64,000 nucleotides of DNA, taken from contig JALUWV010000025.1 of assembly GCA_027019335.1 (NCBI GenBank), positions 19,048-83,047 of the forward strand, written 5' to 3'. Made by a program: the position numbers and the translations under genes. The notes beneath the pieces were generated by a model. That model ran no database searches. It was not told the DNA's origin and saw nothing but the letters and a program-made list of their open reading frames with translations. This DNA comes from Sulfurimonas sp. (GTDB lineage Bacteria > Campylobacterota > Campylobacteria > Campylobacterales > Sulfurimonadaceae). This document shows, piece after piece, positions 1 through 10,057 of the stretch; position 1 is the first letter of the stretch; every line of letters begins with the position of its first letter.

Positions 1-1514
1 TGTGCGGTATTTGTATATATATTATTTCCATCTTCGTTAAATACGACTACTTGGTCAAATTCACGGTACATACTTGCCGAAGGTTGGTGAATGTTGATTA
101 TGATGATTTTGTTTCGCAAGGTAATTTGTTTGAGTTCTTGAATAATATTTTCACTATCTAAGGATGAAAGTCCACTTGTTGGTTCATCCATTAAGATTAA
201 ATCAACATCCTTTAAGAGTTCAAGAGCAATATTGAGTCTTTTTCTTTGCCCTCCTGAAATTGTGTACTTTCCATTTTTAAAAACAGGACTATGCTTAATC
301 TCAATGATGCCAAGATTGCGAAGTTGCTTAGAGATGAGTTTGTCCACATCTGCATCACTTGCTTGCTTCCCAAAATGGAGACGGTAATAGTAGTACATAT
401 TGTCATATACATTCAAATCTTTGATGAGAACATCATCTTGGGGGACATACCCTATGCGGTGAAAATAGTTTTGCGATATGTTTTCATTGTTGATAAGGAG
501 TTCTCCTTGTAACTTTTTTGCTTGGTTTACAAATGTTCTCAGCAGGGTTGTTTTCCCTGAACCAGAAGGACCCATAATCGCTACAAGTTCCCCTTCTTGC
601 ACATTAAAGTTTACATTTTTCACGATTGCCTTGTTTTTACTATATCCAGCAGATAAATCTTTTGCTTTTATGTTGTAAATATGGTCTTTGACGATAGAAC
701 AGTTAAAATTATCTCTCGTTTTGTAGATAATCTCTGAAACTAAAAATTGGATGGGTGTTTCTTTGGAAAAGAGTTTGATAAGTACATTTATATCGAGATA
801 AATAACTTCTTTCTCATTTGTTATACGTATAAAACTCTCTTCGTTGATATAGTAGATAGAATGATTACGGATGGGATGATTGGCAAAAGAGAAGGACTCT
901 TCTTTAAACTCTTGGCATTTTTCATAGAGAGAGAGCTGTTTTTTGTTTTTATAACTGTATATATGGAGGGATTCACTTTCGTTGTTTAAAAGGAGAAAAA
1001 AATCATCAATCTTGAAAATAATAAAACTTACTTTATAGGCTTGAAAAGATTGGTTGAGTTCGCTTTTTGCAGATTGGTCAAAGCAGATAAAATCCATATT
1101 GTTCGCATGTTTTGCAATGGTTGTATGTGCCTTATGATACTTTTTACTCATAAGGAGGTACAAAATATCGTACAAATAGGGGAGTTCGAGTTGTATATAA
1201 ACCTCTTTGAGTGCTTCTATCTGTTTTTTGTTGATTTTTTCTTTATGAATATTTTTAAGCATTATGACCATAAAAAGATTGATAAGGATGATATACTTTT
1301 TTGATGGTGTAAGTTCTTTGAGGTAACGGATAATATCTTCTAAAGAGATATCTTTGGCAAACTCATCAAACTCTTCGATTGACATCTTTATATCTGCATC
1401 ACTATGCCCTTCAACAAGGCGTTTTGCGGCTAAGAGAACATCACTTGTAGTAAGTGTTCCACTTATTTGTGCTATTTCAATCCAAAGTTTGTAAATGTAG
1501 GCTAGGTTATTCAT
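1..1514 (-). CDS. ABCG/White-type ABC transporter ATP-binding protein with N-terminal TerB-like helical extension (partial; runs off left edge; absent from ORF track)
   Basis: Hand translation from ATG at 1514 (MNNLAYIYKLWIEIAQISG...) is open to position 1. Walker A GPSGSGKTT (~546-572), Q-loop GYVPQDD, signature ISGGQRKR, Walker B LILMDEPTSGL, H-loop NIHQPS. Confidence 0.9.
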   Translation of the reverse strand, partial: MNNLAYIYKLWIEIAQISGTLTTSDVLLAAKRLVEGHSDADIKMSIEEFDEFAKDISLEDIIRYLKELTPSKKYIILINLFMVIMLKNIHKEKINKKQIEALKEVYIQLELPYLYDILYLLMSKKYHKAHTTIAKHANNMDFICFDQSAKSELNQSFQAYKVSFIIFKIDDFFLLLNNESESLHIYSYKNKKQLSLYEKCQEFKEESFSFANHPIRNHSIYYINEESFIRITNEKEVIYLDINVLIKLFSKETPIQFLVSEIIYKTRDNFNCSIVKDHIYNIKAKDLSAGYSKNKAIVKNVNFNVQEGELVAIMGPSGSGKTTLLRTFVNQAKKLQGELLINNENISQNYFHRIGYVPQDDVLIKDLNVYDNMYYYYRLHFGKQASDADVDKLISKQLRNLGIIEIKHSPVFKNGKYTISGGQRKRLNIALELLKDVDLILMDEPTSGLSSLDSENIIQELKQITLRNKIIIINIHQPSASMYREFDQVVVFNEDGNNIYTNTA

Positions 1515-1548
1515 AACATTATTATAGCTAATATTTTAGAAGAAAGTG

Positions 1549-1569
1549 ACTAATCCCAAAGGGATTAGT
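1549..1569 (-). terminator. Stem-loop overlapping the MMPL stop codon, possible weak terminator
   Basis: ACTAATCCC-AAA-GGGATTAGT, a 9-bp perfect stem; followed on the minus strand by pyrimidine-rich CACTTTCTTCT. Confidence 0.45.
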
Positions 1570-4333
1570 TTTTACCAAAGACATATTTTGGTTTGAGCCA
1601 AAATATAATCAGAGGGAGAATCGTAAGAGAGGTAAATACATCAATGAGAATTGCTTCAGTAATATATGCTGAAACCCCCCAAGTATTTCCAAGTGTAGTT
1701 GCCATAAGTGGGATAAATGCACCTACTAAAATAACAACAGAAATAAGAACGGAAGAACCTGTTGTTGCGATGGTATTTTTAAGGGCTGTAAACCAATCGC
1801 CATGTTCTTCTAGCTCTTCACGAAGTCGTGCTATCATATAGATACTATAATCAACACCGAGTCCCATCGAGATAGAGAGAGCGATGAGGTTTGCAAAGTG
1901 TAAATTTCCACTCCAAAACTGAAGTGATGTGTAGTAACCAGCCATACCATACTGTGCAAAGAGTGTGATAAAGAGTAACACAGTTAACGCTCCAGAGATG
2001 ATAAATGAACGGAAGATTAAAGTAACCACGATGAAAATTGCAAGGGCTGTTCCAAGTGGATTGTAGAGCCAGTTATCATAAGTCACTTCACGAGTTGCTT
2101 CTGTAGCCCCTAAGAATCCACCAACACCTGGTTTTACATAGCTTAGTTTTGTATCATCTGCTATAGGACCTTTATCCCCAGAAGCATCGGCATTTCTAAA
2201 GCCAAACTCAAGTTGATTCATTCCTGGGTCATTTTTATGCTTTTCAATGTAATTTTGAATAAATAGCATTGCCTCATGTGTTTCTTTTGGATGCATTGTG
2301 TTGATAAAGCCCATGATAACACCTGTGTTATAATCTTGTGTTGTCATAGAAGCTAAATCACCTGGACTTGAAGCGGCATCAAGGAGTCCATTATAAAGTT
2401 GCACGATTTCATCAGGCGAACGGTCATCGCTTGCATCTTTTGCATGTAAAAATTGTGTTGTTGGTATTTGGAAGTCTTTGAGACTTGGTTGATTCCCTGC
2501 TTCTGTCATCAAAATCATGTTCGCAATTTTAACATACTGTGCATACGAAGCGGTAAAACCGATAAATTTATTTTTACGTAAATCATCTTCCATTGTATCC
2601 ATTGCTTTTAAAACGGTAGCATTGTTTAAGATACCTTGTGGTGCATCTTCTTCTGGGTCAAAACAGTTTTTAGCAGGGGGTGTTGTCCCTGCTTCATCAG
2701 CAGCATCAAGGGCATCATAGTAATCATCATCACACTCTGCAAGGAGTGGTTTTTTCCCACGGATAGGGATGTTAAATGAGATAACCCCTGGCATCATTGT
2801 GTTGAGTTTAAAGATATCTTGTACAGGTTGTGAATAAACTTTAAATGCTGCTTGTGCATAGTCGATTCCCTTCTCAACCCCTGGCATTAAGTCAAGCTCA
2901 TCACCACGGAGTACTTTTTGTACTTTTTCCATTCCACTATATTTTGTTGAAGAAACAATATTTTTGATACCTTCATCAATTTTTGTATAGTGAACAGAGA
3001 CAGCGATAATGATAGCAACAAGTGCAAGTGGAATAACTTTTCCATAGCCTGTAAGCATTTTTGCCAAGATATATCCAAACTTCTCTTCCCATTTATAGCC
3101 TTCTGGTGCAGCTTTTTTACTTTTATCTTGAAACATTTGCATCATGAGAGGAATCATGGTTGTTGTTGTTAAGAGTAAAGAGAACATTCCAAACATACCA
3201 AAGTATGCATAGGCTTTATAGAATGAGATGTCCACAGAAGCCAGTGTCGCAAAACCGATAGCATCGGTAACGATAGAGAGTGTTGCAGGAATAATTGTAT
3301 ATCCAAGTGCATTATAACTCGCATCTTCTACACTCTCTCCATCACGAATAGACTTCATGTAACGCCGTGTTATCTGTATGGCATGACCCATACCAACGGC
3401 TAGAATGAGCATAGGTGTTAAAACAACCATCGTTGTGAGTTTGAAGCCTGAAAAGCCCATAATCCCTAAAGTCCAAACGATACTCATCCCAACACCTATG
3501 AGTGGAAAAAGTGCGCCTTTGAGTGAACGAGTTTCTATAAAGAGGATGATAAACGCAATGACAATAGAAAGGACGAAAAGGTACCAATGATTGAGAAGTT
3601 CAACCATCATCCAAGATAAAAAGTAGGGTTCACCCGCTATAGTAATGTTAATTCTATCATCATCATAGTAGGGTGCTAAGTCTGCCACAACTTGACGAAC
3701 CCAAGAAACATAATGTGGTTTGATTTCGTCAGAGTAATCAGCAATCACAAAAGTAGCTTTTGCGACACAGCCTGTTTCATTGTTAGTGCATTTTTCACCC
3801 GTTTTTGGATCAACTTCATGAATAATCATCGGCTTGAGTACAGGGTTTGCATCGAGTCCTGCTTTCATAAAGTCAAGTTCTTGTTTTGCAACAATAGGGT
3901 CTGTTGTGGAGATACCATTGTTTGGAATAAGGCGTTTAAATGAAAGGCTTCCCTCTTCATCTACACCCATGTTTTTAACTTTATCGGCTGCTATAGAGAT
4001 GAAGTTTGCTTTGTTAGCACCTTCCATATTTTCGAGTTTTTTGTGAATTTCACGGACTATGTTTACAAACCATGGTTGGTAGATAGAACCTTCTTTAACT
4101 TCAACACCGACAACAAAGAGATTTCCCATGCCAAATGTAGAATCTGCAAATGCATTGGTTGCTACATAGCGATTTGATTGAGGGAGGAGTGTGTCTGGGT
4201 CATTACGTATATCTACATACTGAATATACCATGCACTAAATGCAGTGATAATCAAAGAAGAGATAAAAAGGAGCCATCTATTTTTGATAGCAAACGTGGC
4301 ATATCTAAATGAGAAACTTGTTTTTTGTTTCAT
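1565..4333 (-). CDS. MMPL/RND-family inner-membrane transporter
   Basis: 922 aa with two repeats of TM + periplasmic domain + 5 TM. Motifs DPDTLLP, ITIAGEP, PATLSIVTDAIGFATL, SMGLGVDYSIY and VFTSLTILPLII are typical of MMPL/YdfJ-type RND proteins. Confidence 0.9.
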   Translation of the reverse strand: MKQKTSFSFRYATFAIKNRWLLFISSLIITAFSAWYIQYVDIRNDPDTLLPQSNRYVATNAFADSTFGMGNLFVVGVEVKEGSIYQPWFVNIVREIHKKLENMEGANKANFISIAADKVKNMGVDEEGSLSFKRLIPNNGISTTDPIVAKQELDFMKAGLDANPVLKPMIIHEVDPKTGEKCTNNETGCVAKATFVIADYSDEIKPHYVSWVRQVVADLAPYYDDDRINITIAGEPYFLSWMMVELLNHWYLFVLSIVIAFIILFIETRSLKGALFPLIGVGMSIVWTLGIMGFSGFKLTTMVVLTPMLILAVGMGHAIQITRRYMKSIRDGESVEDASYNALGYTIIPATLSIVTDAIGFATLASVDISFYKAYAYFGMFGMFSLLLTTTTMIPLMMQMFQDKSKKAAPEGYKWEEKFGYILAKMLTGYGKVIPLALVAIIIAVSVHYTKIDEGIKNIVSSTKYSGMEKVQKVLRGDELDLMPGVEKGIDYAQAAFKVYSQPVQDIFKLNTMMPGVISFNIPIRGKKPLLAECDDDYYDALDAADEAGTTPPAKNCFDPEEDAPQGILNNATVLKAMDTMEDDLRKNKFIGFTASYAQYVKIANMILMTEAGNQPSLKDFQIPTTQFLHAKDASDDRSPDEIVQLYNGLLDAASSPGDLASMTTQDYNTGVIMGFINTMHPKETHEAMLFIQNYIEKHKNDPGMNQLEFGFRNADASGDKGPIADDTKLSYVKPGVGGFLGATEATREVTYDNWLYNPLGTALAIFIVVTLIFRSFIISGALTVLLFITLFAQYGMAGYYTSLQFWSGNLHFANLIALSISMGLGVDYSIYMIARLREELEEHGDWFTALKNTIATTGSSVLISVVILVGAFIPLMATTLGNTWGVSAYITEAILIDVFTSLTILPLIIFWLKPKYVFGKN

Positions 4334-4349
4334 TGTATTTTCCTATGTA

Positions 4350-4374
4350 TCTGTAGAACAGAGTGTTCTACAGA
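4350..4374. other. Intra-operon stem-loop between the barrel gene and the MMPL gene
   Basis: TCTGTAGAACA-GAG-TGTTCTACAGA, an 11-bp perfect stem with no U-tract, just upstream of the MMPL RBS (AGGA). Confidence 0.6.
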
Positions 4375-4392
4375 AGTGTGAGATAGTTTGGA

Positions 4393-6342
4393 TTAGAAGA
4401 TGTATTTAAATCCAAGTTGCATATTTGAAGAGTTTGCCATTTGTCCAAAGACACCAAAGTCATCTCCACCGTAAAGATTAAGTGCGCCTGTTAAGACAAT
4501 ATCATCTGAGTAAGAGTACTCAAAGTCAAGTCTATCCCAGTACCCGCCATTGTCATTTTCTAAAAGAACGATGTTATTTACACGCAGTGCATCACCCTCC
4601 AAGAAAGGACGAGATAAGAAAAATGTGTACATAATTTGATGCTCTTCTGCTTTTTTGAAACCATTTGCAAGACTCATAGTCGCTGGGTTTGCAGTGTGTT
4701 TGCTGTACGCACGAGAGTCTCCAGCATATTGTACATTTTCATCTACATAATCAAGATTCCATTTATCCATAAACTGAAAACTCATAAATAAGTTTCGCAT
4801 AACTGTCATATCTAAACCAACAACATAGTTTAAGAAGTCTGCTTTTTTGTTTGTAAAAGCACCTGCTAAATCACCATAAGCAAGTTTTCCAAGGTCAACG
4901 ATAGGTTGGAGTGTTCCTTTGTCATAAACAATCTCACTACGAACGATGACAGGAGCAAAGTCATTATCGATAGCATAGTCAAATGAAGTACCAAAAGAGT
5001 TTACACGGTTTTGTTTTTCTGTGAAGACCATTGTTGCTCCACCTTGCGCTCCTGCCCCTGTTGGATTATATGCTGCCCGAGTTACTGCATCAACAAGGCT
5101 TATAGTCGCAGTATTTGTTGCTGCATCAACAGTAGTAACTGCATCTAAAGCTTGTCCATTTGCACCTTCCCAAGAAATATCAAATACAGGATTATTATCA
5201 TAGTGGTAGTAGTAATTAAATGTATAGTTTAAGCCTATGTCATCATTTGTCCCTGCATATTTAAAGCCTATATTTCCATTTTTAAAGTCATTATTTGGAT
5301 GTTTTTTTACATATTTTGTTTTAAGACCAATAAATGCATCAAAGGTTCCAAAAGTAGTGTCTCCCATATAGTCAAACATAGTTGTCGGGTTGTCAGTATT
5401 TAAAGTTCCACCAAATAGATTAGTTGTAGCTCCTGTTCCTTGAACTGTTTGTGCGAGTACATCGTTTCCTGAAACACCAGCCCCACCAGCATTGGGATTT
5501 GCTGCATACTGTGCTACTGTTGTAGTTTGTCCAAGGAGTGCATCTCCTAGCGGTAATCCAAAGCCAGCAGAAAATGCGGCATCAAATGCTCCTGCAACTG
5601 CTCCTAAATCTGGACCTATATTATAAAATCCATTATACTGTCCAAAAAGAGTATCTGTTCCAAGTGGAACAAATTGTTGTCCTTGGTCACCAGTTTCAGG
5701 GTTATAAAGTCCTGGGATTTGGTTCGTTACATTGACTTGTGGGACATAAATCATTTGGAATGAACTATCGTCATCTATGGCATACTCTGCGTTTAACATC
5801 CATAATGCTATACGGCTATCCTCCATAGAGTCTTGACCCCAGTGACGGAAGTCTGTTGGGTTGATGATGTCAAGAAATTTTACACCATCCGCTTTTCCCC
5901 ATACTACTTGTTGCTTACCGATTCGTAAACTCAAATCATCATTGACTGCGACATCCATATAAAGTTCGCGTAACCAATCATACTGTGAGTTTATGCGTGT
6001 CTTGTCATAACCATCTATCGCTGCCCAATCTCTACTAAAATCAAGCTCACCATGCCAACTAACATCATCGGAGAGTTCTTGATTAAGATAAAGTTTTGCT
6101 CGAACTTCAGCTAAACTTTTTGTCCCGATATTATGTCTTTGATTACTTCCATCTGCATTTTTGAGTGGGTTGTGTGTTTCACCTGCTTTCATGTAAGCAC
6201 CATAATTACCGAGTAATTCACCAGAGATATCGATTGGAAATTCATACTCTTCATCGGCATCTACATCATCTGCTAGTGCAAATGATGGGAGTGCTAAAAG
6301 TGCTACTGACGCGAGAGAGAGTGCTATTTTGTTCATTTTCAT
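4393..6342 (-). CDS. Outer-membrane beta-barrel protein, DUF1302-like
   Basis: Sec signal peptide; LRELYMD...LRIGKQQVVWGKADG..LDIINP motif of DUF1302-like barrels; C-terminal aromatic BAM signature LGFKYIF. Confidence 0.8.
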   Translation of the reverse strand: MKMNKIALSLASVALLALPSFALADDVDADEEYEFPIDISGELLGNYGAYMKAGETHNPLKNADGSNQRHNIGTKSLAEVRAKLYLNQELSDDVSWHGELDFSRDWAAIDGYDKTRINSQYDWLRELYMDVAVNDDLSLRIGKQQVVWGKADGVKFLDIINPTDFRHWGQDSMEDSRIALWMLNAEYAIDDDSSFQMIYVPQVNVTNQIPGLYNPETGDQGQQFVPLGTDTLFGQYNGFYNIGPDLGAVAGAFDAAFSAGFGLPLGDALLGQTTTVAQYAANPNAGGAGVSGNDVLAQTVQGTGATTNLFGGTLNTDNPTTMFDYMGDTTFGTFDAFIGLKTKYVKKHPNNDFKNGNIGFKYAGTNDDIGLNYTFNYYYHYDNNPVFDISWEGANGQALDAVTTVDAATNTATISLVDAVTRAAYNPTGAGAQGGATMVFTEKQNRVNSFGTSFDYAIDNDFAPVIVRSEIVYDKGTLQPIVDLGKLAYGDLAGAFTNKKADFLNYVVGLDMTVMRNLFMSFQFMDKWNLDYVDENVQYAGDSRAYSKHTANPATMSLANGFKKAEEHQIMYTFFLSRPFLEGDALRVNNIVLLENDNGGYWDRLDFEYSYSDDIVLTGALNLYGGDDFGVFGQMANSSNMQLGFKYIF

Positions 6343-6352
6343 CTTCTAATCC

Positions 6353-7312
6353 TTACTTTTTAATTTTAGTAAGTGTTTTTTTAGACCATAACTTACTTTT
6401 TAGGTGTGTGTTGAATTTTGTAACTTTTTTTGGAATGTAAGCCATTGTTTCATGTCCTGTTTCCATTGTTTTTGCATACCAAGTAAACCAACGCAATGCA
6501 CGAGGGTCTTTTTGTCCTTCTATGGCTTTCCAGTTTTTCTCAAGTATTTTGACTAATTTGCCATTTTTATAGTACTCTGTAAGATAATCGGAAAAGTTTT
6601 TTGTATCTACATAAGTGATACGGTAGTCATACCACCAACCAGAAAATTTTGTTGTACTTTTTACTTTATAAACTTTTCTGTTTTTATAATCATCTGTACC
6701 AGTAGGGAGTTTTTTCGTTGTACGTGTTTGTAAATCTTTAGGAATTACAAGGACATGGACACGTTTACCAAATGTTTCTGTGCCGAGGAGTTCATGTTTT
6801 TCATGCATAGGTTTACGAAGTGTCACATCACCAAATGTAAAGTCTGTTCCACCCCAAGCATCATCATGTGCAGGCTGTGCAAAACGACGAATCTTACGAA
6901 GAGCTGGTAACCAAACAAGGTACTCTTGAGAACGTGCATCATCTTTATAGTCAGTAATGAGCATCCCTGTTCCTTTCATCTTTCCAGAACGGAAAATCGC
7001 AAGGTCTTTTGCTTTGACAGTTGGATTGTCAAGGTAATCATTGTTTAAGTAACGCTCAACTGTATCTGTAAGTGGTTTTTTCCCTTCAGATTTTTTAACA
7101 AGTACGGTAATAGTACGTCGCTTCTTTTCAATAGAGTAGTTTTTAAATGCATAAAAGTGATTGACAAAATACACATTATCCATGATAGCCGTAGCATCTT
7201 TTAACTCTCCTTTTGGATAGGCTAAATTGGTAGGAACTCCACCAAATAAACTACTAGTAAGAAGCGTTGAAAGTGCTCCTACAGCCATCAATTTTGTTTT
7301 GAGATTTAACAT
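6353..7312 (-). CDS. Periplasmic LolA-like 'outer membrane lipoprotein-sorting' protein (DUF1329-like)
   Basis: Signal peptide without lipobox Cys; motifs KGTGMLITDY...YLVWLPALRKIRR...WGGTDFTFGD and EYYKNGKLVK; very Lys-rich. Confidence 0.8.
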   Translation of the reverse strand: MLNLKTKLMAVGALSTLLTSSLFGGVPTNLAYPKGELKDATAIMDNVYFVNHFYAFKNYSIEKKRRTITVLVKKSEGKKPLTDTVERYLNNDYLDNPTVKAKDLAIFRSGKMKGTGMLITDYKDDARSQEYLVWLPALRKIRRFAQPAHDDAWGGTDFTFGDVTLRKPMHEKHELLGTETFGKRVHVLVIPKDLQTRTTKKLPTGTDDYKNRKVYKVKSTTKFSGWWYDYRITYVDTKNFSDYLTEYYKNGKLVKILEKNWKAIEGQKDPRALRWFTWYAKTMETGHETMAYIPKKVTKFNTHLKSKLWSKKTLTKIKK

Positions 7313-7327
7313 TTTGACTCCTTAACA

Positions 7328-7471
7328 TTGTGACTTTTAAGATTTAAGTTAAAATATTTTTTTATAATAAAATAACTGAAGTCACAAACATGTCACAACT
7401 ATAGTGGAAGTAATATTAAAATACTCTTAAAGTTAAGTTATTAAAAATAATAATGTGACATATGTGTAACA
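7328..7471. promoter_or_regulatory. Repeated TGTGAC(A) boxes in the divergent promoter region; putative regulator sites
   Basis: GTCACAA at 7381 and 7392 (11-bp period); TGTGACA at 7454 and TGTAACA at 7465 (11-bp period, opposite orientation); TTGTGACTT at 7328-7336 is inverted relative to AAGTCACAA at 7379-7387. Confidence 0.6.
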
Positions 7472-7550
7472 AATGTTATATTATTATTTTTAAGTATAGA
7501 AAAATAAAATACTAAATATAGAATTAAGTTATATTTAAACTCTTTTGCCT

Positions 7551-7608
7551 TATAATTTCATTAAGCAATGAGTACATTGCAAATAATATATTTTATAAAT
7601 ACAAAGGA
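7551..7608 (+). promoter_or_regulatory. sigma70 -10 box, 5'-UTR hairpin and RBS of the 98-aa gene
   Basis: TATAAT at 7551-7556; GCAATG-AGTA-CATTGC hairpin at 7565-7580; AAGGA at 7604-7608 before ATG 7615. Confidence 0.6.
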
Positions 7609-7614
7609 TTTTAC

Positions 7615-7911
7615 ATGGCAACAAACAAATTAGTAGATATCGCAGAAGCACAAATGGACGCAACAGAAGCAACAGTAGTAAATGCATTGACTGCATTAGA
7701 TACTCAAATCACTTCGGCTCGTGAAATTGGTTCTGATAAAGCAAAAGTTATCGTAAGCGGTTTTGGTGGTGAAACTAAAATGGCTGAGTTAATCGAAAAA
7801 TTAGCTGGTTATATGGGTGAAGCTGCTGGTGCTGGTATGGCTGTTGGTTCAGCTCCAATGGTAATCATGGCAGGTGCTGCTAAAGGTGTTTACAAAAAAA
7901 TTACTGAATAG
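7615..7911 (+). CDS. Small Ala/Gly-rich hypothetical protein (98 aa), probably highly expressed
   Basis: Own -10, good RBS and strong terminator; codon bias (GGT for every Gly, GCT/GCA, AAA, CGT); C-terminal GxxxG series. Confidence 0.85.
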   Translation: MATNKLVDIAEAQMDATEATVVNALTALDTQITSAREIGSDKAKVIVSGFGGETKMAELIEKLAGYMGEAAGAGMAVGSAPMVIMAGAAKGVYKKITE

Positions 7912-7934
7912 TTTTTAACTTTTTCCCTTTTCTC

Positions 7935-7971
7935 AAAGCCTAAAGTGATTTTCACTTTGGGCTTTTTTTTT
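7935..7971 (+). terminator. Rho-independent terminator of the 98-aa gene
   Basis: AAAGCCTAAAGTGA-TTT-TCACTTTGGGCTTT stem running into a 9-T tract. Confidence 0.9.
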
Positions 7972-7979
7972 GCCTTTTT

Positions 7980-8366
7980 TTAGTGCATGATACTTTTTAC
8001 GATATAAAAACCACTACCCGCCATAAAAACAGTTCCAAAAACATTCAGTGACATATTGAGAAGTGCGAGTGTGATACTTCCTGCTTGTAACATCAAAAAA
8101 CTCTCTATCGCAAAAGTAGAGTAGGTTGTTAATGCTCCTAAAAAACCTGTCGTGAGGAATGATTTTGCATGCACAGAAAAAAGCGTAGAGTACATAAAGT
8201 ATGAGACAAGCAAGCCCATTATAAAACTTCCAATGAGATTGACTCCCATTGTACCAAATGGGAGTTCATGGGGAACTTTAGAAGAGATAAGCCCATTGAG
8301 ATAAGCTCTTGAAATAGCCCCTACGAAACCACCACTACCTATGGCTAAGAGTGTTTGCCAACTCAT
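7980..8366 (-). CDS. crcB: Fluoride efflux channel CrcB/FluC
   Basis: GGFVGAISR, PFGTMGVNLIGSF, TTGFLGALTTYSTF. Three tandem ATGs (8366/8369/8372) make the start ambiguous. Confidence 0.95.
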   Translation of the reverse strand: MSWQTLLAIGSGGFVGAISRAYLNGLISSKVPHELPFGTMGVNLIGSFIMGLLVSYFMYSTLFSVHAKSFLTTGFLGALTTYSTFAIESFLMLQAGSITLALLNMSLNVFGTVFMAGSGFYIVKSIMH

Positions 8367-9033
8367 CATCATATACCTTTTGCATTTTAATTCTTAATTC
8401 ATTCAGCCAATTTTTATCATCTTTATTTGCTATAAAAGGTTTCATAAAAATAACTGTTATATCTTTTGGTTTATAGTAAAAGCGTTTAATGTCATAACAA
8501 CTCGCTGTTTCTATGAGGACAATAGGCTGTACCTTGAGAGCATATTTATCAGCGATAACCTTTGCTCCTGACTTAAAGGGAAGCATTCTCCCTGTTCTTG
8601 AACGTGTTCCTTCTGGAAACATTGTGATAACTCTGTTTTTATCGAGTCTATCTTTTGCCGCATGCAGAAGCTTTATGAGCGATGTTTTACTCTCTCTTTC
8701 TACTTCTATATCTTCTGGAAGACTCATAGCAAGACCAAAAAATGGGACATCAAAAAGTGCTTTTTTTGCAACCCATGCTAAATCTTTTCTTGTGACTGTC
8801 TCCATAACCCCAATGTCTAAATCACTTTGATGGTTGATGAGAAACATTTGTGCATCACCCGCCTCAACTCCTTTTTTTGTTGTACGGAAAAAAATAGTGA
8901 GCCTAATAAGCCAAGCAGCAATTTTTCTTGCAAAGGGGCGAGGTAGGAGATAGTATAAAACAATAGAAAGTGTAAGCCCAACAAATATAATAGTAGTGGC
9001 TATAAACCAATTAATATGAGCAAATATCTTCAT
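8335..9033 (-). CDS. plsC: 1-acyl-sn-glycerol-3-phosphate acyltransferase
   Basis: NHQSDLD (HX4D) and FPEGTRS motifs. Confidence 0.9.
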   Translation of the reverse strand: MKIFAHINWFIATTIIFVGLTLSIVLYYLLPRPFARKIAAWLIRLTIFFRTTKKGVEAGDAQMFLINHQSDLDIGVMETVTRKDLAWVAKKALFDVPFFGLAMSLPEDIEVERESKTSLIKLLHAAKDRLDKNRVITMFPEGTRSRTGRMLPFKSGAKVIADKYALKVQPIVLIETASCYDIKRFYYKPKDITVIFMKPFIANKDDKNWLNELRIKMQKVYDDELANTLSHR

Positions 9034-10057
9034 TATTGACCCATCCTATTTTCTCATTTGTAAGTTTTATTTTTGTATAGCCTTTGGTACTTCCTTCTTT
9101 TGTAAGCATGAGTTTTGAAGTTGTTGTTTCAAAAATAGTTCCATTATCTACAGGTAAAAGATGCAATTTTGCACCTTCTTTGATACAAACTTCTTTTGCT
9201 GGTATTTCCATCCAAGCAATATAGGCAAGAGGAATAAGAATAAATATAAGATAAATATACTTTTTTCTCCACACTATAAATAACAAACCAACAAATGCAA
9301 TCCCCGCAGCAATCTCAACTTTCAGAAGTTCATGGGATTGGTCTTTTGGCTTTAAGTCACTTTGTGTCACAACACTATCATCATCAACAACGATAGGAAT
9401 TGAGAGTGAGAGAAATCTATTTTCTAGGAGATTAAAGTAAGAAAAAGAAAAGTTTTCAAGCTCTTTAGGAATAACAACATAGTATGTGAGTTTTGCTTTT
9501 TCATAAGAGTTGTTGAGTGATTCTATACCTTGTTTGAGAACATTTTTAAAATGTGTTACTTTGAGATAAGTATGCTCTCCTTGTAAACGAAAAAGTAAAA
9601 TATTGTTGTGATTGTCATAACTTGTTGTTTTGAAATCACTCAAAGAAAGTTTATTTGCAAGAATATTGGAAAAATCTTTTCTCGGATTAAGAGCAATGGC
9701 ATTGAGTTTCACTCCATGTAATATTGCTGTGTCATAATCTTGTGTATTTTTGAGTGAAGCAGTAACATCTGGAAGACGAGGGTATTTGCTTGTAACTAGA
9801 AAAGGAAATGTTTGATAGTTATACTTTCCAATTTTTTTTGTACTTCTGTTTTGTGAGAGTAGTTTTATACCTGCATAGTTGGAAAATTTATACTTTATTT
9901 GCGGATAATCTCTCACTGTAGAGAGAGATTTGATAGTAAAAGAAGAGAGTTCCCCTTGAATGACTCTTGCAGGTATTTTATCGTAGTTAATGTAGATAAC
10001 TTTATCTGCAAAAAGAGAAAATACAAAAAAGAGACTTACAAGAAGGAATTTTTTCAC
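9011..10057 (-). CDS. Conserved membrane/periplasmic hypothetical protein with C-terminal SH3-like domain
   Basis: Signal peptide, two TMs, C-terminal YTKIKLTNEKIGWV; sits between purQ and plsC as in other Campylobacterota. Confidence 0.7.
   Translation of the reverse strand: MKKFLLVSLFFVFSLFADKVIYINYDKIPARVIQGELSSFTIKSLSTVRDYPQIKYKFSNYAGIKLLSQNRSTKKIGKYNYQTFPFLVTSKYPRLPDVTASLKNTQDYDTAILHGVKLNAIALNPRKDFSNILANKLSLSDFKTTSYDNHNNILLFRLQGEHTYLKVTHFKNVLKQGIESLNNSYEKAKLTYYVVIPKELENFSFSYFNLLENRFLSLSIPIVVDDDSVVTQSDLKPKDQSHELLKVEIAAGIAFVGLLFIVWRKKYIYLIFILIPLAYIAWMEIPAKEVCIKEGAKLHLLPVDNGTIFETTTSKLMLTKEGSTKGYTKIKLTNEKIGWVNNEDICSY

Follow-up and report, generated by a model that had tools for sequence, protein, structure and literature searches.

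A 64,000-nucleotide stretch of a metagenome-assembled genome of an uncultured Sulfurimonas (the window; C25:19048-83047 of genome G000) carries near its start a minus-strand operon for a LolA-like periplasmic carrier, an outer-membrane beta-barrel and an MMPL-type inner-membrane pump, together called the triad. Judged by its protein families, the locus is a PF17131 variant, without a BNR propeller, of the published cassette that combines a DUF1302 barrel, a LolA-superfamily protein and a HAE3 pump. The new part is the linkage of this cassette with a set of dark proteins, which belong to no known family. On balance, the minus-strand genes probably form a route, driven by proton-motive force and ATP, that exports an endogenous hydrophobic or amphiphilic envelope molecule to the outer membrane or the cell surface. 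Cassettes of this kind are widespread and yield mutant phenotypes in several bacteria. The Sulfurimonas variant offers three handles on them: a predicted docking site of invariant residues, an ABC-2 feeder and the co-inherited dark proteins, which, if they act on the cargo, could reveal what the cassettes carry. The host assembly measures 1.84 Mb, with a completeness of 84% and a contamination of 4.9%; positions given here are those of the window unless prefixed.

The first-pass annotation had described one component for each layer of the envelope, an ABCG-type ATPase 50 bp downstream, and the lack of a membrane fusion protein (MFP) and of TolC, and all of this holds. Gene calls with Pfam and NCBIfam matches place the 319-aa carrier (P0003), the 649-aa barrel (P0002), the 922-aa pump and the ABC gene one after the other on the minus strand, with gaps of 10, 59 and 50 bp (Table 1). 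The best NCBIfam match of the pump is TIGR00921 (HAE3; 106.8 bits, 8.3e-31, below the cut-off of 351.9), its match to the HpnN model TIGR03480 (4.7e-14) is far below the HpnN cut-off, and it is 65-73% identical to the MMPL proteins in the triads of other genomes. The ABC gene extends 171 bp beyond the window start; in full (C25:18876-20561) it encodes 561 aa, namely a 285-aa N-terminal domain (residues 1-285) that matched no Pfam model even at E<=10, and a nucleotide-binding domain (NBD) nearest to ABCG/White, with TIGR00955 as top NCBIfam match (1.6e-51, under its cut-off). Outside the window it is followed by an ABC2_membrane permease of 299 aa (PF01061, 67.3 bits) and then by a signal-bearing periplasmic protein of 151 aa with a weak LTXXQ match. 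An ABCG/White-kind NBD and an ABC2_membrane permease define an ABCG-like (type V) ABC-2 exporter, and by sequence the pair can be classed as one; the two domains are fused in eukaryotic ABCG proteins, whereas the permease is a separate polypeptide here. The locus differs from a tripartite HAE1 RND efflux pump such as AcrAB-TolC, which has an MFP and a TolC/OEP component: Pfam scans found neither an MFP nor an OEP gene in the locus, and the OEP, MFP and ACR_tran genes seen at a related locus (L023) form a separate neighbouring pump. In the 50-bp gap between the pump and ABC genes, a hairpin with a 9-bp stem and no proper T run (1549-1569, minus strand) may be a processing or attenuation site.

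For the barrel, the earlier DUF1302 label stands by homology and not by direct model match. No Pfam or NCBIfam model matched the sequence, even at E<=10; the label is right because full-length relatives, 38-43% identical, pass the DUF1302 model PF06980, as do shorter relatives of 430-500 aa, and the fold agrees. By exhaustive search the barrel has 1479 relatives, of which 68 reach E<=1e-30. Among the relatives, P0100 is 43% identical (E=1.7e-114) and scores 70.5 bits with PF06980, and P0109 is 38% identical; P0323, a member of the P0109 cluster, carries PF06980. The protein has a signal peptide and an aromatic final residue (...KYIF), and residues ~205-340 make up a helical insert rich in Gly, Ala and Thr. 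Its AlphaFold2 (AF2) model, with a predicted local distance difference test (pLDDT) score of 82, consists of a large barrel plus this insert; the top Foldseek matches of the model in the PDB are MOMP, AlgE and Occ channels, and AlgE/Occ-like barrels are also the reported structural neighbours of DUF1302 (PMC13499233). Atlas neighbours (TM 0.74-0.86) are mostly clusters from Pseudomonadota, one of which carries DUF1302. At one other locus (L063:1052-9221), a DUF1302 barrel of the P0109 cluster adjoins Wzm/Wzt-like ABC-2 genes and a gene for a sulfotransferase/glycosyltransferase fusion of 1507 aa; by gene content, this places the barrel family in a setting of glycan or glycolipid export.

The carrier has a Sec signal and no lipobox Cys. 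Its Pfam scan gave PF17131 only and no canonical LolA family, and it was not scored in a genome search with PF07044 (DUF1329), which matched other, shorter LolA-like genes on C54 and C83. Against the PDB, the carrier family profile matched 9TP6 (8.5e-14) and 4Z48 (4e-4), the latter named as a LolA-superfamily/DUF1329 structure (PMC6394551). The nearest relative with a solved structure is the first of these, LolA3 of Porphyromonas gingivalis (PGN0947), a LolA paralog with very weak LolB binding, for which a separate function is thought likely (PMC13103446). As in a LolA3-type MMPL cassette, the PF17131 protein adjoins an MMPL gene and a porin-like barrel; the TetR gene of such a cassette is missing. 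The Lol lipoprotein pathway differs more, with its canonical LolA and its MacB-type LolCDE, whereas the ABC proteins here are of the ABC-2 type (PF01061). The host has a second LolA-like paralog on C48, isolated between clpB and bamA. A Rosetta-stone search, a weak test by its own description, found no fusion of the LolA-like domain to longer proteins.

Multimer structure prediction, suggested in the first-pass annotation, gave the carrier and the barrel as a complex that passed its controls. The mature proteins were modelled together in three runs, alongside three controls and with our own alignments supplied, and reached an ipSAE of 0.83 (median of the runs) vs 0.01 for the best control. This mark was attained by 58 of 80 solved complexes and by 2 of 110 mismatched pairs, counts that are only rough here because our own alignments were used. 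The runs had at least 93% of contacts in common, with a partner pLDDT of at least 86. The modelled interface lies on invariant columns of both proteins: on the carrier, the loop 136-148 with L135-P136-A137-L138-R139-K140, R142-R143 and P147; on the barrel, G142-K-Q-Q145-V-V147-W148-G149-x-A151-D152-G153, D455 and R468. A score drawn from the memory of the model is unlikely, since no DUF1302 structure has been solved to date (PMC13499233). The prediction supports docking of the LolA-like carrier on the barrel. The host also holds a second, shorter cassette type (G000:C54:5-1168), made of a LolA-like protein of 260-280 aa that passes DUF1329 and a DUF1302 barrel of 430-490 aa, and the same type is present in 9 of 24 sampled congeners (relatives L002-L010, L016-L022).

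The cassette type is not undescribed, as had first been supposed. In Castellaniella defragrans, Puentes-Cala and Harder characterised AmeABCD, composed of a DUF1302 barrel, a DUF1329 LolA-superfamily protein, a COG4447 BNR protein and a HAE3 RND pump, the deletion of which reduces monoterpene tolerance (PMC6394551). Genes for DUF1302, DUF1329, BNR and RND proteins are cofit in Shewanella, Kangiella and Pseudomonas, and Price et al. proposed the export of a cell-wall component (bioRxiv 10.1101/072470). With both, the Sulfurimonas locus has in common a HAE3-type RND pump (TIGR00921 below its cut-off), a LolA-superfamily protein and a DUF1302-family barrel (by homology only), and no MFP or TolC. 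Docking of carrier and barrel is predicted in both kinds of system, the published DUF1302-DUF1329 multimer having an ipTM of 0.84 (PMC13499233). Other features differ. The carrier belongs to PF17131 and fails DUF1329, within the same superfamily; the COG4447 BNR/Ycf48-like propeller (PF14870) was found in none of G000, G071, G296, G233 and G258, in a search that matched control genomes; the genes run in the order carrier-barrel-pump; the barrel, which bears the helical insert, is larger; and an ABC-2 exporter and seven dark genes are attached. The hopanoid transporter HpnN (HAE3) belongs to the same RND family as the pump and operates without a dedicated periplasmic partner or barrel (PMC6394551).

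The seven co-inherited dark proteins, presumably cytoplasmic, are two paralogs of a family that we call GYMGE, the shorter of which is the product of a divergent 98-aa gene facing the operon, and h123, h83, h141, h188 and h416; h123 is a paralog of h83, and h188 has its N-terminal domain in common with h416. Among 301 Sulfurimonadaceae genomes sampled, GYMGE is found in 8 and the large barrel in 10, including all 8 GYMGE carriers, and h141 is present in exactly these 8. Relatives without the restriction-modification insertion described below have the order long GYMGE, h188, h416, h121-123, h141 and h83, then on the opposite strand the LTXXQ-like, ABC2 membrane, ABC, MMPL, barrel and carrier genes, and finally the short GYMGE. 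The locus L023 has a second type of flank and retains this core. In another genus, genome G071 (L056) bears on one strand carrier, barrel, MMPL, long GYMGE, h123, an h141-like gene, h83, short GYMGE and h188, continued by h416, h141 and a second carrier, with no ABC genes. The triad occurs without the small genes at three loci (L053, L058, L059). Conserved linkage of the cassette to the 98-aa gene, proposed earlier as a matter for a synteny search, is borne out by adjacency in three arrangements and by co-occurrence in all 8 carrier genomes. When 185,579 species were scanned with a sequence pattern, GYMGE turned up only in Sulfurimonas/Sulfurimonadaceae genomes assembled from metagenomes and in one labelled Helicobacteraceae. 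The host carries a type I restriction-modification system between h188 and h416, upstream of the window (L030:9004-15103, on C25), with hsdM, hsdS and an unscanned 1054-aa open reading frame (ORF), probably hsdR; L050-L052 are without the insertion.

The divergent 98-aa gene is real, as first annotated: it has 91 homologs (identity 54-100%, nearly all at least 61%), a dN/dS of 0.12-0.29, a promoter block of its own, an AAGGA ribosome-binding site and a terminator. Its product combines a helical N-part with a nearly invariant, Ala/Gly-rich hydrophobic C-terminal tail (LAGYMGEA...AKGVYKKIT) and is 30% Ala plus Gly, all Gly codons being GGT; direct reading of the sequence revealed no signal peptide and no Cys. 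The codon adaptation index, calculated with six ribosomal/EF-G genes as reference set, is 0.815, at the 99.9th percentile of ORFs of at least 150 aa, and we infer that the gene is among the most highly expressed and the protein abundant. The family has two forms, one of 98-101 aa and one of 140-170 aa with an N-terminal Lys/Ala/Pro-rich extension; the long copy of the host (C25:7924-8343, outside the window) lies at the 96.8th percentile of the index. The AF2 model of the GYMGE monomer is helical, but its pLDDT of 59.5, which falls below 50 in residues 69-98, does not suffice for a fold search.

GYMGE and the module genes gave nothing above threshold in Pfam, NCBIfam, PHROGs and PADLOC; sequence searches of the PDB with the GYMGE profile and with h416 gave no match, and Atlas feature searches no usable one. 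A double-glycine leader (FGG, residues 50-52) releasing a bacteriocin-like peptide was considered and dropped, as conservation is highest in the C-terminal part, a C39 peptidase is lacking and one GYMGE paralog has a long N-terminal extension; gas-vesicle and microcompartment readings were dropped as well, Pfam scans of the locus proteins having given neither family. Small size, inferred abundance and amphipathic helices are features shared with the phasins PhaF and PhaP, and PhaF carries a Lys/Ala/Pro-rich histone-H1-like extension, as the long GYMGE form does. The 98-aa protein nonetheless matches neither Phasin nor Phasin_2. As for a possible PHA or wax-ester inclusion, PhaC_N is absent from five carrier genomes; the WS/DGAT model matched neither these five nor the control genomes. 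At E<=1e-3, GYMGE matches, conserved or divergent, are confined to the 8 genomes with the main family. Two divergent paralogs occur in the host. The first (L013:1495-2178; G000:C115) has 227 aa, is Lys-rich and contains 11-residue phasin/apolipoprotein-like repeats of the TDTVKDTA type; it scores 24.4 bits with Phasin_2, under the cut-off of 24.9, and 0.0028 with Apolipoprotein. The second (L014:885-1181; G000:C98) has 98 aa and adjoins a sensor kinase.

Taken together, these genes suggest a stepwise path across the envelope. RND pumps and ABC-2 systems are exporters. We infer the export of a molecule made by the cell because an ABC-2 exporter is part of the operon and because a related barrel stands beside Wzm/Wzt-like genes at L063. 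In a first step the ABC-2 exporter would take the cargo through the inner membrane or out of it; the HAE3/MMPL pump, acting like HpnN, would then lift the cargo off the outer leaflet and into the periplasm. There the soluble carrier would shield it, and the invariant loop LPALRKIRRF (residues 135-144) is predicted to dock in the periplasmic mouth of the barrel, which would pass the cargo on. On the cytoplasmic side, the GYMGE pair would act as abundant membrane- or lipid-surface-binding proteins serving the cargo or the membrane.

Several points weigh against such an export route. No cargo, enzyme or phenotype is on record for the Sulfurimonas variant, and no lipid- or glycan-synthesis gene is conserved beside the cassette. 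The phenotypes published for related cassettes, tolerance and growth on fatty esters, fit efflux or uptake too. G166, G258 and L053 have the triad but not the small proteins, and G071 has it but not the ABC genes, so neither belongs to the core. The co-occurrence counts are not independent events, since the carriers fall in about three lineages. As for the small proteins, the GYMGE tail is moderately hydrophobic (Kyte-Doolittle 1.43 over 19 residues), and with the poor model this makes membrane binding a guess.

The spacer between the carrier and GYMGE genes bears on the regulation of both. The 1.84-Mb genome contains the tandem motif TGTNACA-N4-TGTNAC at three sites, of which two stand in this spacer in mirror orientation; the third (C30:12951) was rejected as a regulatory site, as it lies within a coding region and is probably there by chance. 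The tandem boxes are kept, with letters changed, in 5 of 8 related spacers, one of which has a perfect inverted pair; triad-only loci have a single TGTGACA. Mirrored repeat boxes common to the operon and the small gene had been noticed in the first annotation, and these counts put them beyond chance. They are probably sites for one regulator of both divergent promoters; Pfam scans found no TetR or other helix-turn-helix family gene in the locus.

Boxes common to both promoters would also suit a tolerance system, in which an AmeABCD-like pump expels exogenous hydrophobic toxins and the small proteins are co-induced, tail-anchored stress proteins that protect the membrane in the style of ElaB and YqjD. 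The tolerance phenotype of AmeABCD speaks for it, as do the length of GYMGE (98 aa), its helical N-part and the Gly-rich tail at its C-terminus, in which it would resemble ElaB. Set against this, GYMGE matches neither DUF883 nor another stress family, and the ABC-2 partner together with the polysaccharide-type context of a relative indicates an endogenous cargo. We regard toxin efflux as rather unlikely, if still the most serious competitor of the export route.

The dark genes might instead have nothing to do with transport and form a separate neighbouring island without common function, possibly the remnant of a mobile element. The insertion of a restriction-modification system within the host locus, the triad standing alone elsewhere and a weak match of h188 to the phage anti-repressor phrog_2379 (E=7e-4), which h416 does not have, are consistent with this. 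Yet the adjacency spans two genera or more and persists through three rearrangements, one of them a co-directional run straight after the MMPL gene, GYMGE and h141 co-occur exactly, and the module is never seen without the barrel. Moreover, tblastn against phages gave no match and the locus holds no integrase. An unrelated island appears distinctly unlikely.

Going further than the export route itself, all genes could serve one apparatus, in which GYMGE would coat or organise a hydrophobic body or membrane domain, its extended paralog would tether this to the nucleoid in the manner of PhaF, and the transporter chain would carry the contents, possibly sulfur-rich, to the surface. This is a long shot. 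If true, planktonic sulfur oxidisers would possess a bacterial counterpart of apolipoprotein/ABCG-type lipid export.

Sulfurimonadaceae are largely sulfur oxidisers, and the first-pass annotation had proposed that zero-valent sulfur or polysulfide is the cargo, with the small protein as coat or carrier, or else that the small protein is itself exported. Apart from the metabolism of the genus, this would be in line with an abundant paralogous pair of ~10 kDa that formally recalls the sulfur-globule proteins SgpA and SgpB, and with the divergent paralog bearing phasin/apolipoprotein-like repeats. The distribution argues otherwise: the cassette is missing from 291 of the 301 sampled genomes of the family and the small protein from 293, the triad occurs without the small gene, barrel relatives are commonest in Pseudomonadota, and relatives of the cassette lie in hydrocarbon, terpene and polysaccharide contexts. 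Sulfur globule proteins are secreted and bear a signal peptide, whereas GYMGE has neither signal peptide nor Cys, and no sox, sqr or dsr gene stands in the locus. Because of the absence of the cassette from most of the family and these features of the small protein, gene content and sequence lend no support to a link with sulfur, and we consider such a cargo very improbable. Uptake of hydrophobic substrates such as alkanes or fatty esters is no more credible, as Sulfurimonas species are chemolithoautotrophs, no catabolic genes adjoin the locus and RND and ABC-2 systems export, even if a related MMPL-LolA-like fusion and its neighbouring porin are induced on the n-C28 alkane in Thalassolituus and DUF1302/DUF1329 mutants of Pseudomonas putida show fitness defects on Tween 20 and on butyl stearate.

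Table 1. Features of the locus and related loci (window positions unless prefixed)
Feature	Position	Strand	Evidence
ABC-2/ABCG-like ATPase, in-window part	1..1514 (NBD ORF 3-1514)	-	PF00005 111.7 bits
MMPL/HAE3-type RND inner-membrane pump, 922 aa	1565..4333	-	PF03176 130 bits; Sterol-sensing 31 bits
Outer-membrane beta-barrel, 649 aa, divergent DUF1302 relative	4393..6342	-	homology, AF2, Foldseek
Periplasmic LolA-like protein (PF17131, TP_0789-like), 319 aa	6353..7312	-	PF17131 69.7 bits, cut-off 30
Tandem box TGTGACA-N4-TGTGAC facing the operon	7381..7397	-	genome pattern count, spacer alignment
Tandem box TGTGACA-N4-TGTAACA facing the small gene	7454..7471	+	genome pattern count, spacer alignment
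Conserved small-gene promoter block TTAAGTTATATTTAAA...TATAAT	7524..7559	+	best-conserved stretch, 8 related spacers aligned
98-aa GYMGE protein gene	7615..7911	+	homologs, dN/dS, promoter, ribosome-binding site, terminator
Intrinsic terminator of the small gene, 14-bp stem + T run	7935..7965	+	sequence
h416-core loci outside the family	L060:10001-12765; L061:10001-11038; L062:10001-10954		

Further observations concern the surroundings of the locus and its relatives. Other Campylobacterota conserve the C-terminal core of h416 (DAYxFA repeats, then MANRVLWMA..DRIGEMSDRIVHTE), encoded there immediately downstream of rpsF-ssb-rpsR. The protein with this core in Hydrogenimonas cancrithermarum is a putative Tat lipoprotein of 681 aa, and its gene has a TP_0789-like gene directly behind it. 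In relatives (L050:5041-8327), an aminotransferase gene and an OvoA-like gene of 699 aa (DinB_2 + FGE-sulfatase + methyltransferase) stand upstream of the locus, which suggests ovothiol synthesis. In the window, beyond crcB (8335-10057, minus strand), a PlsC-type acyltransferase (PF01553) and a protein of 348 aa without a known family form a pair that flanks the locus in the L027 flank type only, not in that of L023.

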